Source: a virus (Duplodnaviria; Caudoviricetes). Taken from it: a DNA stretch of 64,000 bases. Under the pieces are notes generated by a model that saw only the letters and a list, made by a program, of their open reading frames with translations, was not told the DNA's origin and searched no databases. How positions within the stretch are numbered: position 1 is the first letter of the stretch; every line of letters starts with the position of its first letter. The DNA lies in the IMG/VR virus record IMGVR_UViG_3300027740_000003, positions 160,001 to 224,000 of that record. One strand, 5' to 3'. Both the position numbers and the translations under genes were made by a program. Below are positions 4,085 through 53,450 of this stretch, piece after piece.

Positions 4085-4537
4085 ATGTCAGAATATAACC
4101 TGCCTGATTATGGCACAAACATACATGAATATATAAGAGATAAAATCCAAACTGCTATGCAAAAAATCATCGGCGAACCAATGAACAACCAGGCCTTGTC
4201 AGTATTAGAATATAATTGCAAAGAAATAATCAAAAGTTTACCTTTTACAGTTATTGATAGTGAGATAATAGTTAAACAAGACGAATTCGATACGACCAAA
4301 ATAAACTTTACATTTCCATTTATTTCAGAAATACTTGGATATATTTTATTTGATCCGAAAAATGACAATCATTATTGGGATTATTTGTCTGATACTAATG
4401 TTTATTTAAATTCAGGACATTATACTTCTTTCAAATGCAGAAAATGTGGATTAGAAATGATTATAAATAACGGATGGAAGCTTGCCAAACAGAATCTGAC
4501 TTGCGAAGAAATGGTAATAAAAGATATAATTGAATGA
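4085..4537 (+). CDS. IKDIIE-tail family, zinc-finger class with extra N-terminal domain
   Basis: DNHYW...CRKC...LTCEEMVIKDIIE-stop; ATGA overlap with the next gene. Confidence 0.8.
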   Translation: MSEYNLPDYGTNIHEYIRDKIQTAMQKIIGEPMNNQALSVLEYNCKEIIKSLPFTVIDSEIIVKQDEFDTTKINFTFPFISEILGYILFDPKNDNHYWDYLSDTNVYLNSGHYTSFKCRKCGLEMIINNGWKLAKQNLTCEEMVIKDIIE

Positions 4538-5157
4538 CCGCAACATCTTTAAGCAAACTACGAAGCCTTCCTTATCACGAAAGGATAAAATTTATCTTCC
4601 TTCAAAATAATTGGTTTGAAGAAACTTTGTATTTATTAAAAGATTATCCAAATTGGGACCACGATGAACTAGAAAAGAAATTGGCTATCGAAATAACATC
4701 ACATGAATGTGTTAATTTATTTAATGTTTGTGCTTTGTTAAAACACAGGGGTATAAATTTTGACAGAATGTTTTCTTACATTCTACAACACATTCCTATA
4801 TATCATCTTTCAGATTCTCTCTACGAACCCACCGTTATAATAGAGTGTATTGTTAAATCTGAGAAAATAAATTCTCTAAATGCATTTATTCGCTTTCTTT
4901 CTGAAAAAGAAAATGATGAAAGTTATTTTAATAATTTATTTTGTTATAATTCTATAGTAAATAACATCGATCATTTAATACATCAAAATAAAGAAAAATT
5001 TATTGATTTTAATACTATTATAGATGTGTGTTTGAAAAATTTAAATAAAGACCGCCGTGCCGCACACATTTTGTCCACATTATTAAAATTGCTGAAAAAC
5101 AAAGATTTAATTCAGAAAATAAAAGATAATTTGTTGATTTATGATATTATGACGTAA
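4534..5157 (+). CDS. Helical hypothetical protein with divergent tail
   Basis: Ends KIKDNLLIYDIMT-stop, alignable to the D(N/Q)LxIKDIIE tail. Confidence 0.7.
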   Translation: MTATSLSKLRSLPYHERIKFIFLQNNWFEETLYLLKDYPNWDHDELEKKLAIEITSHECVNLFNVCALLKHRGINFDRMFSYILQHIPIYHLSDSLYEPTVIIECIVKSEKINSLNAFIRFLSEKENDESYFNNLFCYNSIVNNIDHLIHQNKEKFIDFNTIIDVCLKNLNKDRRAAHILSTLLKLLKNKDLIQKIKDNLLIYDIMT

Positions 5158-6006: not shown

Positions 6007-6370
6007 CTTTTACTCTCTGGTTAACAAATGCTACAATTGTTTTACACCTAGTCATTGAAAATTGTTTTATATCAAAATCTATTTTGTTTACTTTAATCTT
6101 CCTACACAAATCATCAAATATTTTCTTTCTTGTTTTTTCAGGAAGCAAATTATTTCTCCATAAACCTTCCATAGCCACTTCAGCTTTAACTCTTAATATA
6201 TGGCTTTTCTCATCCTCTTTAACAGGATTGCCTAAATTGTCAGCGTCTATCTTGCCTAGACAGCCATCAAATAACCATTTAGAACAAGAGTAGAATACTC
6301 CAATCCGGCCCTTCTGAAGAACCATATTAGAACTGCATTTAGGACAGGTTAGGTTTTTGTAGACTCTCAT
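5900..6370 (-). CDS. Topoisomerase-type C4 zinc-ribbon protein
   Basis: CPKCSSNMVLQKGRIGVFYSCSKW..GC matches the zf-C4 topoisomerase ribbon pattern. Confidence 0.65.
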   Translation of the reverse strand: MRVYKNLTCPKCSSNMVLQKGRIGVFYSCSKWLFDGCLGKIDADNLGNPVKEDEKSHILRVKAEVAMEGLWRNNLLPEKTRKKIFDDLCRKIKVNKIDFDIKQFSMTRCKTIVAFVNQRVKDVGRKTPQKSQNSFKCIRYESLGRKLREPELRDSV

Positions 6371-7599
6371 ACAACATCTTTCACAAAAAATTCATGCAAC
6401 TCGTGGTATACATATTTTATTAAACCTTTTTCTGGCCACAAAATTTCTAAATCACTTAATCTTTCTCCACCATTTCCACGTTCCTCTTTTATTGCTTTTT
6501 TCAATAAACCAACGTTTCCATTTTTATCACAAATTTTCATGTCCATAACCAATCTCTCCATTGGATAATTTAATAATGGAATAGAGGCATCCCTAACTGC
6601 CCAACCAAAACCAGGTTTTACTGCACCAGATATTTCCTTTGAACCAACGATTCCTCCAATGAATTCCATAGGATACTGTTTATCATAATAATTCCATATA
6701 AATGGAACTGTAGATATTCCTTTGGGGAATTCGTTAATTGTTAAACCTCCGCCGAAAGACTTAACATTATCAAAACATACATATTTATTTTGATAATATT
6801 CGTTATTTGTATCTATCAAATATGGGTAAAATTTAATAACATGACCATTGATAAATGGGCCTCCGCTCCCGCCACCTTCTGAATAAAAATTCATCCAAAA
6901 GTCTGTATCAACATTGCCTTTGGCACTGTCAACAATCTTCTCTAAAACCGGATCTAGTTTTATAGTCCACCAATCAAGATTATATTGTGCCAATTGTTTT
7001 GTTTTATCTCTAATTAGTTCCCAGTCTTCTACTGTTCCTTCCAGCGTGATAGAAGGAATTCCACAGAGGGTAGTACAAGAATAATTAAAATATTTGCTCA
7101 TTGCGTCCATAAAAACAATTTCACTACTTACTCTTTCTAATATTCCAGTTGTGCTGAAATTTCCCACTATTAAATCTTTTTGTGGACCAATTTCTTTGCC
7201 TATTTTTTCTGAGAATTCATCGAAACAACCTTCCCAATGATTATTGCCACCTTTTACAAAACTGTCTCTTCTTACATCTATTGTTTTCTTTCCATCGAAA
7301 TTAACAAATTTGCTTCGTAATTTTTCTGCATTTTCAGTAATATGAGCAGCCATCCCACGTTCTATTGTTAGCCAAATAGAATCAGGATCAAGAATTAAAT
7401 GACGATGCTCTGCAAATGAAAGCTGAACAACAGATACCAAACCTGATCCAGTTCCGGAAACAAATTCTCCTTCTGAGCATTGTTCTAAATCACCCCCAAC
7501 CAATTGTTTTATTTGTATGTTAGTTTTTGATTTTCGGGAAGGATCGGTGTTGGTAGAAAAATTCTTTTTAGTTAGTGCTACGTCAAATGTTGCTGTCAT
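6367..7599 (-). CDS. DUF4419-like protein
   Basis: H..L.L.PD.IW, FSTT, DAMSKYFNY...CGIPSITLEGTVEDW and GGSGG..INGH motifs recalled for this family. Confidence 0.75.
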   Translation of the reverse strand: MTATFDVALTKKNFSTNTDPSRKSKTNIQIKQLVGGDLEQCSEGEFVSGTGSGLVSVVQLSFAEHRHLILDPDSIWLTIERGMAAHITENAEKLRSKFVNFDGKKTIDVRRDSFVKGGNNHWEGCFDEFSEKIGKEIGPQKDLIVGNFSTTGILERVSSEIVFMDAMSKYFNYSCTTLCGIPSITLEGTVEDWELIRDKTKQLAQYNLDWWTIKLDPVLEKIVDSAKGNVDTDFWMNFYSEGGGSGGPFINGHVIKFYPYLIDTNNEYYQNKYVCFDNVKSFGGGLTINEFPKGISTVPFIWNYYDKQYPMEFIGGIVGSKEISGAVKPGFGWAVRDASIPLLNYPMERLVMDMKICDKNGNVGLLKKAIKEERGNGGERLSDLEILWPEKGLIKYVYHELHEFFVKDVV

Positions 7600-7643
7600 T
7601 GTATTATATCCCTAATAGTTAGTTAATTTTTTCTTGATTGGAA

Positions 7644-7832
7644 TCAACCATTTTTATACCCATCCTTCGCCCAACCACTTCCTTTTAAATGAAATGGTGG
7701 GGCTCCTGATATTAATCTTTTAGCAGATTCTTTTCCACATTTTGGGCATATTTTAATGACAGGATCTGTAATCTTTTGATCTTCTTTCCATTCGTGTTTG
7801 CAATATTCACAGATGTAATCGTATTCTATCAT
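7644..7832 (-). CDS. FmdB-family zinc-ribbon protein
   Basis: YDYICEYCKHEW...CPKCG...RLIS...F.LKGSGWAKDGY. Confidence 0.85.
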   Translation of the reverse strand: MIEYDYICEYCKHEWKEDQKITDPVIKICPKCGKESAKRLISGAPPFHLKGSGWAKDGYKNG

Positions 7833-8752
7833 TTGAAAAACTCCATAGCATCAGCATATTTGAATCCACATCTAGAAGCAAAGGTTTTATCAGACGTCAT
7901 GTCTCCAACCATAATGCATTCTTTAGGATTTAGTTTATATTTCTCTACAAACTCTATCCCTATTCCAGGCATAGGTTTCCTCTTCCATGATATAATCGGA
8001 GGAACTTTAGATGTATCAAATTGATACTCTATATCTAACCCAATCAATTTATTAGTATGTTCAAAACAAGCAGTGGCAGCTTCTATTGTTAAATCTCCTT
8101 TTGCTACACCGCTTTGATTAGATGCTCCTAATAATTTGTATCCTTTTTCCAGGTATGATTTTAAAACCTCTGTTCTTCTTGGCAATAATTTTATTTGATC
8201 TGTGCTTGTTGGGAACATACCGTTTCCATTAACAATTTCTCTTAATGTTCCGTCATAGTCCAATATTAATGCTTTATTAACATATTCTGATTCCCATTTC
8301 CTAGTAAAGTTATTCTTAATTATTTCTGAAAATCCCTCGTTTATATTTGGTTTTTCAAATTCTTTGTTGGCTTTGAATAATACTGCCGGTGGAAATGTGT
8401 TTGGATCTTTTTCCTTTTTTAACTCTTCGGGAGTTAATACTTTGCCAAATTTAGAACACATTCTCCTACATGCATTAACTTGACAATCTTCTATACTGGT
8501 AGTTTGCCAGATACATTTAATTTCAACATTATATTTCTCAGCCAGATCAATAAAAGGTTTTCTATCTGAAACTTTAGTAAACAAATTATCTATAATAACA
8601 TCTTTTGATGAAGATATTAGAACTTCTAGTTTAGGCAGAAGATCAACAACTTTTCCGCCTACAAGATCTCTGTTAAGTCTTTCGTAGGTTGGATATTGGT
8701 TAGTTATTGTTGTTTTTCCTGAAGCTGGCAAACCACAAACAAGTAAAATCAT
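7829..8752 (-). CDS. Bifunctional polynucleotide kinase (AAA_33) / HAD phosphatase, Pnkp-like
   Basis: N-terminal GLPASGKT P-loop; C-terminal DYDGT, RKP and MVGD..SD HAD motifs. Confidence 0.85.
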   Translation of the reverse strand: MILLVCGLPASGKTTITNQYPTYERLNRDLVGGKVVDLLPKLEVLISSSKDVIIDNLFTKVSDRKPFIDLAEKYNVEIKCIWQTTSIEDCQVNACRRMCSKFGKVLTPEELKKEKDPNTFPPAVLFKANKEFEKPNINEGFSEIIKNNFTRKWESEYVNKALILDYDGTLREIVNGNGMFPTSTDQIKLLPRRTEVLKSYLEKGYKLLGASNQSGVAKGDLTIEAATACFEHTNKLIGLDIEYQFDTSKVPPIISWKRKPMPGIGIEFVEKYKLNPKECIMVGDMTSDKTFASRCGFKYADAMEFFK

Positions 8753-11688: not shown

Positions 11689-11978
11689 TATTCTATTATA
11701 TCCTTTATCATTAGTTCATCTTTGGTTATCAACACAGAGTTTTCTTTTATTTTATCTAAAACTTCGGGAAATTTATTATTGGACACACTAGCTATTATTT
11801 TGCTTGAACTGGTTGTTATTTTTCGTTTTGTTCTCTTGTTTTTTGGATATAAAATTTTAATTATATCATTTTTAACAAAAATAAACCCCCATATACAATC
11901 TTTGTATTGCAAATTACCAATTGTAAATGACCGTTTGGCTAAATAAAATTCTTCTCTCTCAATTTTGACAATATTCAT
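11688..11978 (-). CDS. IKDIIE-tail family, Cys-less member
   Basis: Likely start MNIVK at 11978 (ATGA overlap); ends LITKDELMIKDIIE-stop. Confidence 0.75.
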   Translation of the reverse strand: MNIVKIEREEFYLAKRSFTIGNLQYKDCIWGFIFVKNDIIKILYPKNKRTKRKITTSSSKIIASVSNNKFPEVLDKIKENSVLITKDELMIKDIIE

Positions 11979-12730
11979 TCTATTATATCTTTTATCATTA
12001 AATTGTCTATTATTTCTTCGGCAAATTCTTTCCAATCTGGACATAATAATATTATGTTTATATTATATCCAGATTGTTCTATTGCAGTTTTTTGAACTTC
12101 TTTAGGAGGGTTCTTTATAAATTGAATAGAATATGCATCTTGTTTAACTGCTTCTAATTTTATTTCTTTAGAAGGATTTTTTATAAATTGAATAGAATAT
12201 GCATTTTGTTTAATCGCTACTAATTGTACTTCTTTAGAAGGATTCTTTATAAATTGAATAGAATATGCATTTTCTTTAACAGCTGCTAGTTTTATTTCTT
12301 TAGAAGGGTTATTTATATATTGAATAGAATTTCCATTTTGTTTAACTGCTTCTAATTGTACTTCTTTAGAAGGGTTCTTTATAAACCTAATACGAAATCC
12401 GTCTTGTTTAACAGTCTCTAATTTTGTATTTTTTGTGGGTTTATTTATAAATTGAATATAACTTCCGTCTCTTTTAACCACTACCAGTTGTACTTTTTCT
12501 GTAGGATTTTCTATATACTTAATTGAAATTGGGTCTAGTTTAACAGCTTTTAATTGTATTTCTTCTGAAGGATTTTTTATATACCTAATTGAATATGAAT
12601 CTTGGTTAATAGTTTCTAACTGTACTTCCCTAGAAGGATTTTTTATATATTTAATGTAATCACTGTCAAAATCAATAAGTTTTCCTAAATGAGATGATAA
12701 TAAATCCTCAACTTTTTTAGCATGCGACAT
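11975..12730 (-). CDS. 22-aa repeat (DUF4116-like) solenoid protein with IKDIIE tail
   Basis: About 9 NPSxExQLxAVKQxxxSIxxIK units; ends IIDNLMIKDIIE-stop. Confidence 0.85.
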   Translation of the reverse strand: MSHAKKVEDLLSSHLGKLIDFDSDYIKYIKNPSREVQLETINQDSYSIRYIKNPSEEIQLKAVKLDPISIKYIENPTEKVQLVVVKRDGSYIQFINKPTKNTKLETVKQDGFRIRFIKNPSKEVQLEAVKQNGNSIQYINNPSKEIKLAAVKENAYSIQFIKNPSKEVQLVAIKQNAYSIQFIKNPSKEIKLEAVKQDAYSIQFIKNPPKEVQKTAIEQSGYNINIILLCPDWKEFAEEIIDNLMIKDIIE

Positions 12731-14767: not shown

Positions 14768-15293
14768 CCTTTATATTAGTTGCTTTAATATGCTGGTGAT
14801 ATTTAGCAACAATTTTTTTCTGATCCATTGTTAAAGCATACCAAAATGGATGCTTGGCAGGATCTTCTGGATTGGTCAATATGCCTTTATATTTTTCCTG
14901 ATGTGTAGTAAGATTATATGCCCACTCTTGTTCTCTTTGTTCATCAAGCATATTTACATTAGATAGTTTATGTTCATGTCCGCTGATTTCTGAATATATT
15001 TCATTCACTCGCCCATTAAACATATTTCCAAATGGCAAAATATCAGCATAAAGTTGAAACCTTAACCAAGGTCTAGTTATTTCCAGATCAATTAAATTTT
15101 GACTGCCAACAACAAGCAGGTTTTTATCCTCTATTTCAATTATATCATCTTCATCATCTTCAAAATAATAAACTTCAGCGGTTAATCCGGTTTTATCACA
15201 TAATAGTTTCAAACCATCGCATGTGGCCGCGAATCCATTTGTTCCAAATGCTTTATTCTGTTCTATAAGCCATTCAACAAGTTTATTCATCAT
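14736..15293 (-). CDS. Hypothetical protein
   Basis: 185-aa ORF, ATGA-coupled. Confidence 0.7.
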   Translation of the reverse strand: MMNKLVEWLIEQNKAFGTNGFAATCDGLKLLCDKTGLTAEVYYFEDDEDDIIEIEDKNLLVVGSQNLIDLEITRPWLRFQLYADILPFGNMFNGRVNEIYSEISGHEHKLSNVNMLDEQREQEWAYNLTTHQEKYKGILTNPEDPAKHPFWYALTMDQKKIVAKYHQHIKATNIKVVPGIPRFKW

Positions 15294-16140
15294 TCTATTA
15301 TGTCCCTTATTATTACATTATTATATATTGTTTCTAACGTTTTTGTATCTAACCTGGATAGATTTATAGTCCCAATAACATTTAAATTATATTTACTTGC
15401 AACAACGGCTTGTTGTTGTACTTCTTTTGAAGGGTTTTTTATAAATTTAATAGAAGACGGGTTTTGTTTTACAGCTGCTAGTTGAATTTCTTTTGAAGGG
15501 CTCTTTATACTTACAATAGATAGACCGAATTGTTTAACAGCTGCTAATTGGACTTCTTTAGATGGATTTTTTATATATTGAAGTGCATATCCATTTTGTT
15601 TAACAGCTAGTAATTTCATTTTTTCTGAAGGATTACGTATGTCTTCAATACAAAGTGAACATTGTTTAATAGCTGCTAGTTTTATTTTTTCGGAAGGTTT
15701 TTTTATATATTGAATAGAAAAACCGTTTTGTTTAACAGCCTCCAATTGAAGTTCTTTAGAAGGATTATGTATAAATTGAATAGAATGCCCGTTTTCTTCA
15801 ATCGCTGCTAATTTAACTTCTTTTGAGGGATTTTTTATATATTTAATAGAACATCCGTTTTGTTTAACAGCTACTAGTTTTATTTTTTCGGAAGGATTTT
15901 TATATAACATATAGATCCTCCGTTTTGTTTAACTGCTTCTAATTTTAATTCTTCTGAGGGGTTCTTTATAAACTTAATAGAATATCCGTTTTGTTTAACA
16001 GCTGCTAATTGCATTTCTTCAGTAGGATTATTAATATTTCGAATATTATGTAAATCTTGTTTAACAAGATTTAATCTTTTAGAATATAAAAAATTATCTA
16101 ATTTAGAGATAATGTCCGATTTAACAAGTTCATTTGTCAT
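15290..16140 (-). pseudogene. Frameshifted 22-aa repeat protein with IRDIIE tail (track ORFs 15880..16140 plus 15290..15910)
   Basis: The repeat register continues across a 5-T run at 15897-15901 where sister repeats have 6 T; adding one base fuses the two ORFs. Confidence 0.75.
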
Positions 16141-27330: not shown

Positions 27331-27663
27331 CTAATAATAAACCTCGCCATCACAATTGTGTTTTGGTGCTTCAATATCATCTCTAGGAATTATAGTCTTC
27401 AAAACCAAAGATACAGCTTTTTCTAAAGTAGGAACGTTCACTACTTTCTTATCTTTATAATAAATAGAATTACTGCCATTGTCTTTTTCGAAGAAAACTT
27501 CATACCCAAAATCATTTTGCTCAATAATAAAGCCGTCTTTTATAAAATTAATTGAAGAGTATTTGTCTCTATATCCGCCACCATATATTAATTCACTCAA
27601 ATCACAATACCTACAAATTAATTTGGCATCCTGTAATGTTTTTACCGCCTCTTGTGGTGTCAT
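27331..27663 (-). CDS. Hypothetical protein
   Basis: 110-aa ORF, ATGA-coupled. Confidence 0.65.
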   Translation of the reverse strand: MTPQEAVKTLQDAKLICRYCDLSELIYGGGYRDKYSSINFIKDGFIIEQNDFGYEVFFEKDNGSNSIYYKDKKVVNVPTLEKAVSLVLKTIIPRDDIEAPKHNCDGEVYY

Positions 27664-28508
27664 TCTATGATATCCTTTATTATTAAATTATCTACTATTT
27701 CATCTGCAAATTCATTTCTATCAGAACATAAACATATTATGTCCATATCATATTTTGATTGTTCTATTGCAATTTTTTGTAATTCTTTAGAAGGATTCTT
27801 TATATAAGATATAGAATATGCATCTTGTTTAACTGCTGCTAATTGTACTTCTTCGGAAGGATTTTTTATATAAGATATAGAAACCCCTATATTTTTAACT
27901 GCTGCTAATTTAACTTCTTTTGAGGGATTCTTTATAAATTGAATAGAAAGCCCGTTTTCTTTAACGGCTGCTAATTTCATTTCTTTAGAAGGATTCTTTA
28001 TATATTGAATAGAGTTTCCGTTTTGTTTAACGGCTGCTAATTTCATTTCTTTAGAAGAATTCTTTATATATCGAATAGAAGTTCCAATTTGTTTAACCGC
28101 TGCTAACTGCATTTCTTTAGAAGAATTCTTTATATATCGAATAGAAGTTCCAATTTGTTTAACCGCTGCTAATTGTGCTTCTTCGGAAGGATTCTTTATA
28201 TATTGAATAGAAGTTCCAATTTGTTTAACCGCTGCTAATTGTGCTTCTTCGGAAGGATTTTTTATATAACAAATAGAATAGCTATTTTGTTTAACAGCTG
28301 CTAATTGCATTTCTTTAGTGGGGTTTTTTATATAACAAATAGAGGTTCCGTCTTGTTTAATAGCTACTAACTGCATTTCTTTAGTGGGTTTTTTTATATA
28401 TTTAAGATTGCTTCCAGCTAGTTTAACTGCCTTTAAAGCAAATTCCTCATCGTCATAATCAAATTTAAGATGTTTAATGCATAATTTATTTAATTTATCT
28501 ATTGACAT
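27660..28508 (-). CDS. 22-aa repeat (DUF4116-like) solenoid protein with IKDIIE tail
   Basis: About 10 repeat units; likely start MSIDK at 28508; ends IVDNLIIKDIIE-stop. Confidence 0.88.
   Translation of the reverse strand: MSIDKLNKLCIKHLKFDYDDEEFALKAVKLAGSNLKYIKKPTKEMQLVAIKQDGTSICYIKNPTKEMQLAAVKQNSYSICYIKNPSEEAQLAAVKQIGTSIQYIKNPSEEAQLAAVKQIGTSIRYIKNSSKEMQLAAVKQIGTSIRYIKNSSKEMKLAAVKQNGNSIQYIKNPSKEMKLAAVKENGLSIQFIKNPSKEVKLAAVKNIGVSISYIKNPSEEVQLAAVKQDAYSISYIKNPSKELQKIAIEQSKYDMDIICLCSDRNEFADEIVDNLIIKDIIE
28044..28259. repeat. Near-perfect 66-bp tandem repeat units
   Basis: 63 bp identical at 28044-28106 and 28110-28172; 55 bp identical at 28139-28193 and 28205-28259. Confidence 0.9.
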
Positions 28509-28518
28509 TTTTTTTCTT

Positions 28519-28863
28519 TTAATAGCAGTAGTTAGCCCGACACCGCTTGCCAAGATTAATTTCTTTTGTATTAGTTATACAAACAGTTTTTGCATTGCTA
28601 CATTCTAAAACTTTATTCGGATAACAAGCAAGTTCACAATTGGTTTGTTTATAAGACAAAGCCAATACCAAGAACACAAAAATAACTACAATCATAATAC
28701 CAATTATTCCAAACATATTTTCTTTTGATTGTCTGGCGTCTATTTCGTCAATGAGCCGATCGATTTCAGTATTAGAATTTTCTAATTTTAAAATTGATGC
28801 ACCAAAATTTACTATTACCTTTTCTAATTCTACAACTGTTTTCTCTAATTTTTCATCGGACAT
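28519..28863 (-). CDS. Single-pass membrane protein
   Basis: Coiled coil, hydrophobic MFGIIGIMIVVIFVFLVLAL, then a small Cys-rich domain. Confidence 0.7.
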   Translation of the reverse strand: MSDEKLEKTVVELEKVIVNFGASILKLENSNTEIDRLIDEIDARQSKENMFGIIGIMIVVIFVFLVLALSYKQTNCELACYPNKVLECSNAKTVCITNTKEINLGKRCRANYCY

Positions 28864-53135: not shown

Positions 53136-53450
53136 TTATACTATTTGTTTTAGTTCTTCACCAATTTTATTACAGTTATCCTGGGTCGTATTATAACTAT
53201 CTTCCCCAGTGATATTTGCCCTGAAATTTTCATCAGTAGCAATTTGTTTACGAATCTTCTTTCTCTCTTCTTTAATGTAATTTTTAAGATCTCTGCCTGT
53301 TAGAGATACTCTAATAGCAGGAACCCCAAGTATTACTCTCCTTGCTTTGCCCCCGCATTCCGGGCAAATTGTCGGAGGATCTTGCTTAATAGAATAGGTA
53401 TCCTGCCAAGCGTATTTACATTCATAACACTCATGATCATATTCGGGCAT
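53136..53450 (-). CDS. FmdB-family zinc-ribbon protein (second paralogue)
   Basis: MPEYDHECYEC...CPECGG..RRVI; start 53450. Confidence 0.8.
   Translation of the reverse strand: MPEYDHECYECKYAWQDTYSIKQDPPTICPECGGKARRVILGVPAIRVSLTGRDLKNYIKEERKKIRKQIATDENFRANITGEDSYNTTQDNCNKIGEELKQIV

Follow-up and report, generated by a model that had tools for sequence, protein, structure and literature searches.

Deletions and rearrangements leave 3′-terminal relics of genes in intergenic spacers as part of the decay of prokaryote and phage genomes. In this work, we analyzed a stretch of 64,000 nucleotides (the window; bases 160,001–224,000 of the single 435,004-bp virus record IMGVR_UViG_3300027740_000003, Caudoviricetes, 35% GC), in which 27 bases directly in front of a gene for a DUF4419 protein read like the end of a C-terminal peptide tag that is shared by about 112–117 open reading frames (ORFs) of the same genome. 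We interpret this orphan tag fragment as the stump of a tagged gene that has been lost, a stump which now serves the DUF4419 gene as its initiation region. This would be a case of ordinary gene decay, and we put the probability of the interpretation at roughly 60%. Like other gene remnants, the fragment is short, resembles the end of a functional family, has no start, is closed by a stop and sits between intact genes whose adjacency is lineage-specific. It differs from them in that its parent could be any member of a set of about 115 genes that share nothing but the tag, and in that an intact ancestor was not seen at the site. A second comparison concerns the intragenic Shine–Dalgarno (SD) sequences and ATGA overlaps of packed operons. 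In intact tags, the Lys/Arg-Asp codons provide AAGGA or AGGGA 9 nt before the ATG of the next gene, and the orphan keeps this arrangement. Unlike in translational coupling, the fragment lies in an untranslated frame and its TGA terminates no ribosome, so that it now amounts to a conventional, stand-alone ribosome site derived from coding sequence. A third comparison is offered by the promoter-early stem-loop (PeSL) cassettes, which are reported to mediate modular shuffling in T4-type phages (PMC2839356, PMC4122927). In both systems, a short conserved sequence recurs at many of the borders between the small variable genes of a large phage and may provide homology for recombination; unlike the non-coding promoter/terminator stem-loops of PeSL cassettes, the repeat described here is coding and synonymously variable, with no promoter above chance and no structure.

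The minus strand reads CTA ACT ATT AGG GAT ATA ATA CAA TGA from position 7622 to position 7596 and thus encodes LTIRDIIQ-stop, exactly as had been pointed out in an earlier note made from the letters of the sequence alone. These eight codons and their stop correspond to tag positions −8 to −1 and are part of no start-bearing ORF. An in-frame TAA, also read correctly in the note, stands immediately 5′ of them (7625–7623) at tag position −9, which is mostly Glu in real tags, and the resulting stop-to-stop frame of eight codons contains neither ATG nor GTG nor TTG. The TGA of the fragment overlaps, as ATGA, with the ATG of the DUF4419 gene (7599–7597), which covers positions 6367–7599 of the minus strand and encodes a protein of 410 aa (Pfam DUF4419, E 1.5e-69). 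On the other side, a spacer of 18 nt (7626–7643, minus strand; FQSRKN in the tail frame, without significant resemblance to the tag) leads to the end of a gene for a 62-aa FmdB-type Zn-ribbon protein (7644–7832, minus strand; Pfam Zn_ribbon_8, E 1.9e-10). The latter is ATGA-coupled to a gene for a polynucleotide-kinase/phosphatase-like (PNK) protein at 7829–8752. A search for local repeats and mobile-element ends around the site found none, and its GC content is unremarkable.

The tag against which the fragment has to be judged is a motif of 13 residues as defined by information content, L-[TS]-x-D-E-h-h-I-K-D-I-I-E. The strict pattern h-h-[KRN]-[DN]-h-h-[EQLD] ends 98 ORFs genome-wide, and an eight-residue position-specific scoring matrix (PSSM) at a threshold of at least 12 bits recovers 117 out of 27,144 stop contexts; because only two more contexts fall between 8 and 12 bits, the distribution of scores is bimodal. 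All codon and rank statistics given below are based on 112 tags. The proteins that bear the tag are between 31 and 439 aa long; among them are DUF4116-repeat proteins, three of which (window positions 11975–12730, 15290–15910 and 27660–28553, minus strand; Pfam E values from 7e-20 to 4e-25) belong to the larger bearers, so that the tag is not confined to tiny ORFans. It is a motif of the peptide level, because synonymous codons vary among its copies (GAT/GAC; ATA/ATT/ATC), because 40 of the 112 stops are TAA or TAG (the other 72 being TGA within [AG]TGA) and because its bearers are so diverse. In about 60% of the tagged genes, the stop overlaps with the start of the following gene as ATGA. The Lys codon of the tag is AAG in 50% of the copies compared with 26% genome-wide (p = 1e-7) and the Arg codon is AGG in seven of nine, a bias that places AAGGA or AGGGA at a distance of 9 nt from the start that follows; AAA, which gives no SD sequence, makes up 46%. 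The share of AAG is the same in tags whose TGA overlaps a start (33 of 64 Lys codons) and in tags that end with TAA or TAG (19 of 39), and by these counts AAG is not reserved for overlapping starts. A literature search for the tag string returned nothing relevant.

The match of the fragment to the tag is real and goes beyond chance. Its terminal residues follow h-h-I-[KR]-[DN]-I-I-[EQ] directly before the stop, and LTIRDIIQ reaches 13.1 bits with the PSSM (17.8 bits with a wider seed set), which corresponds to P = 1.6e-6 per context and to 0.044 expected matches over all 27,144 stop contexts; ten second-order Markov shuffles of the genome gave none. Since any region in front of a start codon has a composition of its own, a condition already raised in the earlier note, which named a chance frequency of such matches upstream of AT-rich starts as the finding that would speak against a relic, a ribosome-binding-site-aware null model was built, position by position, from the actual sequences upstream of 384 gene starts without a preceding tag. 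Under this model the probability is 1.5e-5 per start, or about 0.006–0.01 matches per genome, far from what chance would supply. As DNA, the 27 nt score 26.5 bits with a position weight matrix, and no shuffled genome gave 14 bits or more. Compared with the 112 real tags, the fragment ranks ninth from the bottom as a peptide (8th percentile) and 25th as DNA (22nd percentile). Its Arg at −5 and its Gln at −1 are minor variants, and at −7 it has Thr, where 100 of the 112 tags have M, I, V or L. The lower peptide than DNA rank, together with the atypical Thr, is consistent with a relaxed constraint on the peptide and a retained nucleotide context.

Only eight of the 13 codons are left. The upstream half of the tag, L-[TS]-x-D-E at −13 to −9, is absent from the locus, which reads S-R-K-N-stop there, and positions −15 to −10 (FQSRKN) sum up to −2.1 bits with the PSSM (P = 0.085 against random residues). 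Likewise, similarity found with blastn-short is limited to the last 21–22 nt. A homology reaching past the TAA was considered on account of the resemblance of KN-stop-LTIRDIIQ to ...KNELMIKDIIE and was rejected, as the upstream positions are not significant.

The tail frame is shared with the Zn-ribbon ORF, the whole reading ...GWAKDGYKNG-stop-FQSRKN-stop-LTIRDIIQ-stop with the TGA 7646–7644 and the TAA 7625–7623 in between, and it was therefore considered whether the fragment is the tail of the Zn-ribbon protein cut off by nonsense mutations. This idea was rejected because the close homologues all end at the same residue: the five closest proteins in the protein collection (54–75% identity) and the homologue in LR745208 terminate with ...GWAKDGY plus 0–3 residues at a total length of 59–70 aa. 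The nearest relatives from IMG/VR end one or two residues after KDG, and more distant ones carry unrelated hydrophilic extensions. Judged from these homologues, the TGA 7646–7644 is the native, ancestral stop of the Zn-ribbon gene, and the frame that this gene shares with the fragment is a one-in-three coincidence. It follows that the fragment must stem either from a copied junction or from another tagged gene, now missing. Among the structural genes, at 53277–53450 (minus strand), there is a further FmdB-type Zn-ribbon sequence, which has diverged to 36% identity with the one at 7644–7832.

The fragment also has the properties of a ribosome-binding region. Conservation of the DUF4419 N-terminus, M-[ST]-x-T-F-[EDQ], extends over 25 aligned homologues and the loci L010, L011, L020, L022 and L024, from which it follows that the ATG at 7599 is the true start. 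With the end of the Zn-ribbon ORF 44 nt away and no translation in the frame of the fragment, the DUF4419 gene, which is present in a single copy in the genome (one tblastn match), needs a ribosome site of its own. The Arg-Asp codons AGG GAT provide it with an SD-like AGGGA (7613–7609, minus strand), a purine-rich core that lies 9 nt before this genuine start and thus within the 5–10 nt asked of an SD sequence. Its predicted pairing with the anti-SD sequence amounts to −5.6 kcal/mol, stronger than that of 64% of the non-tag gene starts, for which the median is −4.1 kcal/mol; random 17-mers have a mean of −2.0 kcal/mol, and intact tags reach −5.4, −5.5 and −0.9 kcal/mol with AAG, AGG and AAA, respectively. 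According to these predictions, the fragment carries an SD sequence of normal-to-good strength at normal spacing before a conserved start. The proposal that the motif is kept as a translation-initiation element thus holds locally, for AGGGA, the AT-rich spacer of 9 nt, the ATG of the DUF4419 gene and the good predicted pairing. As a general role of the motif at the DNA level it does not hold, given the synonymous variation, the 40 of 112 stops that are TAA or TAG, the 46% of AAA codons and the conservation of L-[TS]-x-D-E, which has no role in a ribosome site. The fragment had also been described as still coupled to the next gene, and here the ATGA overlap itself stands; it is no evidence for coupling, because its final A belongs to the conserved Thr/Ser codon at position 2 of the DUF4419 protein.

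A single promoter-like match (9/12) was found at the junction, which is chance frequency, and no terminator. The TATAAT within the tag was considered as a promoter and rejected, since this −10-like hexamer ends 3 nt before the ATG and a transcript would start in or after the start codon. An RNA element was likewise rejected, as the junction gives no fold signal (z = 0.30) and matches no Rfam family. At its other end (6367–6390, minus strand), the DUF4419 protein terminates with EFFVKDVV-stop, where an ATGA overlap leads into the gene for a protein of 156 aa that has a Top1-type zinc ribbon. The end is faintly tag-like, one residue short, its Lys-407 is conserved in the family, and it is probably unrelated to the tag.

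Comparison with relatives provides the background for the history of the site. Queries with the DUF4419, PNK and Zn-ribbon proteins retrieved relatives of 49–62% identity with different neighbours, and none in IMG/VR, among metagenome contigs or in the INPHARED phage records has the junction. The nearest DUF4419 homologues anywhere are 58–62% identical, those that could be placed (L010, L011, L012 and L019–L024) have other genes upstream, and the tested records with the closest of them contain no IKDIIE tags. In the two nearest relatives that possess both a DUF4419 and a Zn-ribbon gene, these lie 9 and 17 kb apart next to other neighbours, and the neighbours of the PNK-like and Zn-ribbon genes differ in relatives, too. 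Hence the adjacency of the Zn-ribbon and DUF4419 genes is, on the genomes compared, specific to this lineage, which fits a rearrangement or deletion here, although the ancestral state is not thereby shown. A tag-bearing relative (G005, 458,729 bp; L026–L048) has no DUF4419 gene and spells its tag I-[KR]-[ED]-I-I-[EK], with EIIE ending 30 ORFs, DIIE 22 and EIIK 11, a spelling common to all its bearers. This suggests that the tag and its reader change together between lineages.

Taken as the remnant of a lost tagged gene, the locus would have the following history. A small tag-bearing gene would once have stood directly upstream of the DUF4419 gene, with its last eight codons and stop being the 27 bases seen today, and its body would have been lost by deletion or replacement when the block of PNK and Zn-ribbon genes came to adjoin the DUF4419 gene. 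The fragment would then no longer be translated, its frame opening with TAA and lacking a start codon, and would persist little changed as the initiation region of the DUF4419 gene, supplying AGGGA, the AT-rich spacer of 9 nt and the ATG; had a deletion reached any further, the DUF4419 gene would have lost its ribosome-binding site. The relic of a deleted tail-bearing gene was among the options of the earlier note and is the one that the data bear out best: the similarity to part of a functional gene is significant, only eight of 13 codons are left, there is no start codon that would allow translation, and the stop of the Zn-ribbon gene is native. That a complete tagged gene once stood at the site, and that selection on initiation rather than recency alone preserves what is left of it, are probable parts of this history.

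Several observations weigh against it. The intact ancestral gene was not seen, nor does any relative in the searched collections keep the junction; the nearest DUF4419 homologues, at 55–62% identity, stand in other contexts. With one genome, selection is inseparable from a recent scar that has not yet decayed. An SD sequence needs about five bases, and the match over the spacer (ATATAATACA) exceeds what ribosome binding requires, which favours recency, at least in part. The pairing energies are predictions against a canonical 16S 3′ end, and the anti-SD sequence of the host may differ. Finally, the fragment belongs to a pattern of three or four orphans that is too small for statistics (P of about 0.15 for all of them keeping the wobble G).

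These three or four similar broken or orphan tags elsewhere in the genome show that tagged genes decay in this lineage. At genome position 151128 (G000:C1:151100-151300, minus strand), 8.9 kb before the start of the window, a small tagged gene is split at a T6 run: its body (MIEDGKYYCLNDEC...) comes to an end in one frame, while the +1 frame continues with ...FFIQLTEDEAMIRDIIL-stop. The split may reflect an assembly error in the homopolymer, a pseudogene of recent origin or a site of slippage. An orphan-like tag, IKNKDILE-stop (CIQLSSIKNKDILE-stop), occurs in frame behind the TAA of a 151-aa ORF at G000:C1:122563-122607 (minus strand); its TGA is part of an ATGA overlap with the start of a 276-aa gene, and it keeps AAGGA (−6.0 kcal/mol). 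In a duplicated unit of about 588 bp, IKIRNIIQ-stop (...CSIKIRNIIQ) is present twice, at genome positions 21941 and 22529 (L001:1501-1530 and L002:1501-1530, minus strand), its frame overlapping with the last part of a 63-aa ORF, and with an ATGA onto a 217-aa gene in one of the copies. A weak case was found at genome position 406170. The relative G005 has a possible analogue at L028:836-890 (G005:C1:40836-40890, minus strand), where LILPRDIIE-stop with ATGA follows 48 nt after a real tag, ...IIREIIK-stop, also with ATGA; as both ATGs share one reading frame, the start of the downstream gene is ambiguous. All four ATGA-linked orphans keep a G at the third position of the Lys/Arg codon, with pairing energies between −4.3 and −6.0 kcal/mol.

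Among the alternatives, the one that survives best accepts that a tagged gene was lost and holds that its remnant is a neutral scar, simply too young to have decayed, while any A/G-rich sequence upstream would serve the DUF4419 gene. We consider this unlikely, yet it is the main rival and has to be taken seriously. The similarity extends over the entire 21–27 nt including bases of the spacer that the SD sequence does not need, tags with AAA (−0.9 kcal/mol, almost no SD sequence) precede overlapped starts all the same, and tagged genes are evidently in flux. On the other hand, with the upstream ORF stopping 44 nt away, termination–reinitiation at the ATGA is unavailable, and the gene's own SD sequence is expected to matter; the fragment, like the other orphans, has the SD-forming variant, in this case AGG. 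It also speaks for selection that the downstream half of the tag is intact and the upstream half unrecognisable, but a deletion with its end point at −9 gives the same picture.

Less probable still is a junction cassette, in which the DNA of the tag and the stop/start overlap form a portable boundary, small genes are gained, lost and swapped by recombination between the copies, and the orphan is an off-register footprint of such an event. In its favour, the roughly 115 tag copies amount to direct repeats of 21–46 nt that mark gene boundaries and lie almost exclusively on one strand, and the surroundings of the two flanking genes are different in each of the relatives examined. The shuffling by PeSL cassettes that is documented for T4-type phages (PMC2839356, PMC4122927) provides a precedent. 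Moreover, the orphan junction (7590–7613, minus strand) shares 21 of 24 bases with a real tag junction at 4523–4546 (plus strand). However, this match is explained in part by the family-conserved N-terminus M-T-x-T, synonymous variation has the effect that pairs of tags typically share only short identical runs, and clean recombination from tag to tag leaves no orphan. The combination of promoter and terminator stem-loop that characterizes PeSL cassettes is missing from the junction, where there is only the 9/12 chance match, no terminator and z = 0.30. The two junctions lead into MTATSLSK... (4523–4546) and MTATFDVA... (orphan), a resemblance that is probably coincidental. If true, the junction cassette would be the counterpart, in coding DNA, of what PeSL cassettes are in T4-type phages.

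It is hardly credible that an ordinary ribosome-binding region, with its G-rich core, AT-rich spacer and ATG-A, translates into a tag-like peptide by accident: AGGGA and the spacer are indeed generic and the A after the ATG comes from the conserved second codon, but the expectation under the ribosome-binding-site-aware model (1.5e-5 per start) is about 100-fold below one, almost no scores fall at 8–12 bits in the bimodal genome-wide distribution, and no shuffle matches.

A translated tail that competes for the reader of the tag, whether made by read-through of both stops behind the Zn-ribbon gene, by frameshifting from MVDSNQEKIN into the tail or as a mini-peptide with a non-AUG start, is just as implausible. 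In its favour, the fragment and the Zn-ribbon ORF share a reading frame, and the spacer contains an A-run (GAAAAAATT). Read-through would have to pass two different stops, one of them, TGA, being the regular terminator of 72 tags; a ribosome that slips by −1 on the A-run ends up before the TAA; the eight-codon frame has no start codon and no SD sequence before it; and there is neither a stimulatory RNA structure (z = 0.30) nor a match to an Rfam family, so that nothing at the junction qualifies as a site of programmed frameshifting or of stop-codon read-through. The mini-ORF was described correctly in the earlier note insofar as the ATG at 7651 opens MVDSNQEKIN-stop (10 codons, 7619–7651, minus strand) and one additional base joins it to the tail frame. 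What had been overlooked is that this ATG lies within the last codons of the Zn-ribbon gene (K-N-G) in another frame. The mini-ORF thus represents an alternative frame across the end of that gene and the spacer, its ATG an out-of-frame accident in the conserved ...AKDGYKNG, and is not a gene. The idea of a frameshifted mini-peptide has to be abandoned for three further reasons: the nearest SD-like AAGGA is 11 nt upstream of the ATG at 7651, which is too far, there is no slippery site that would carry a ribosome past the TAA, and an indel must be assumed. No mini-ORF should be called at this site by annotation pipelines.

On its own, the remnant of a tagged gene in front of the DUF4419 gene is of little weight: a deleted gene would have left exactly the piece that the translation of the next gene needs. 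In the intact copies, selection keeps the peptide and not the DNA word, and the orphan scores lower as a peptide than as DNA. Its modest value lies in being a marker for the shared C-terminal tag and in indicating that tagged genes are lost as well as gained.

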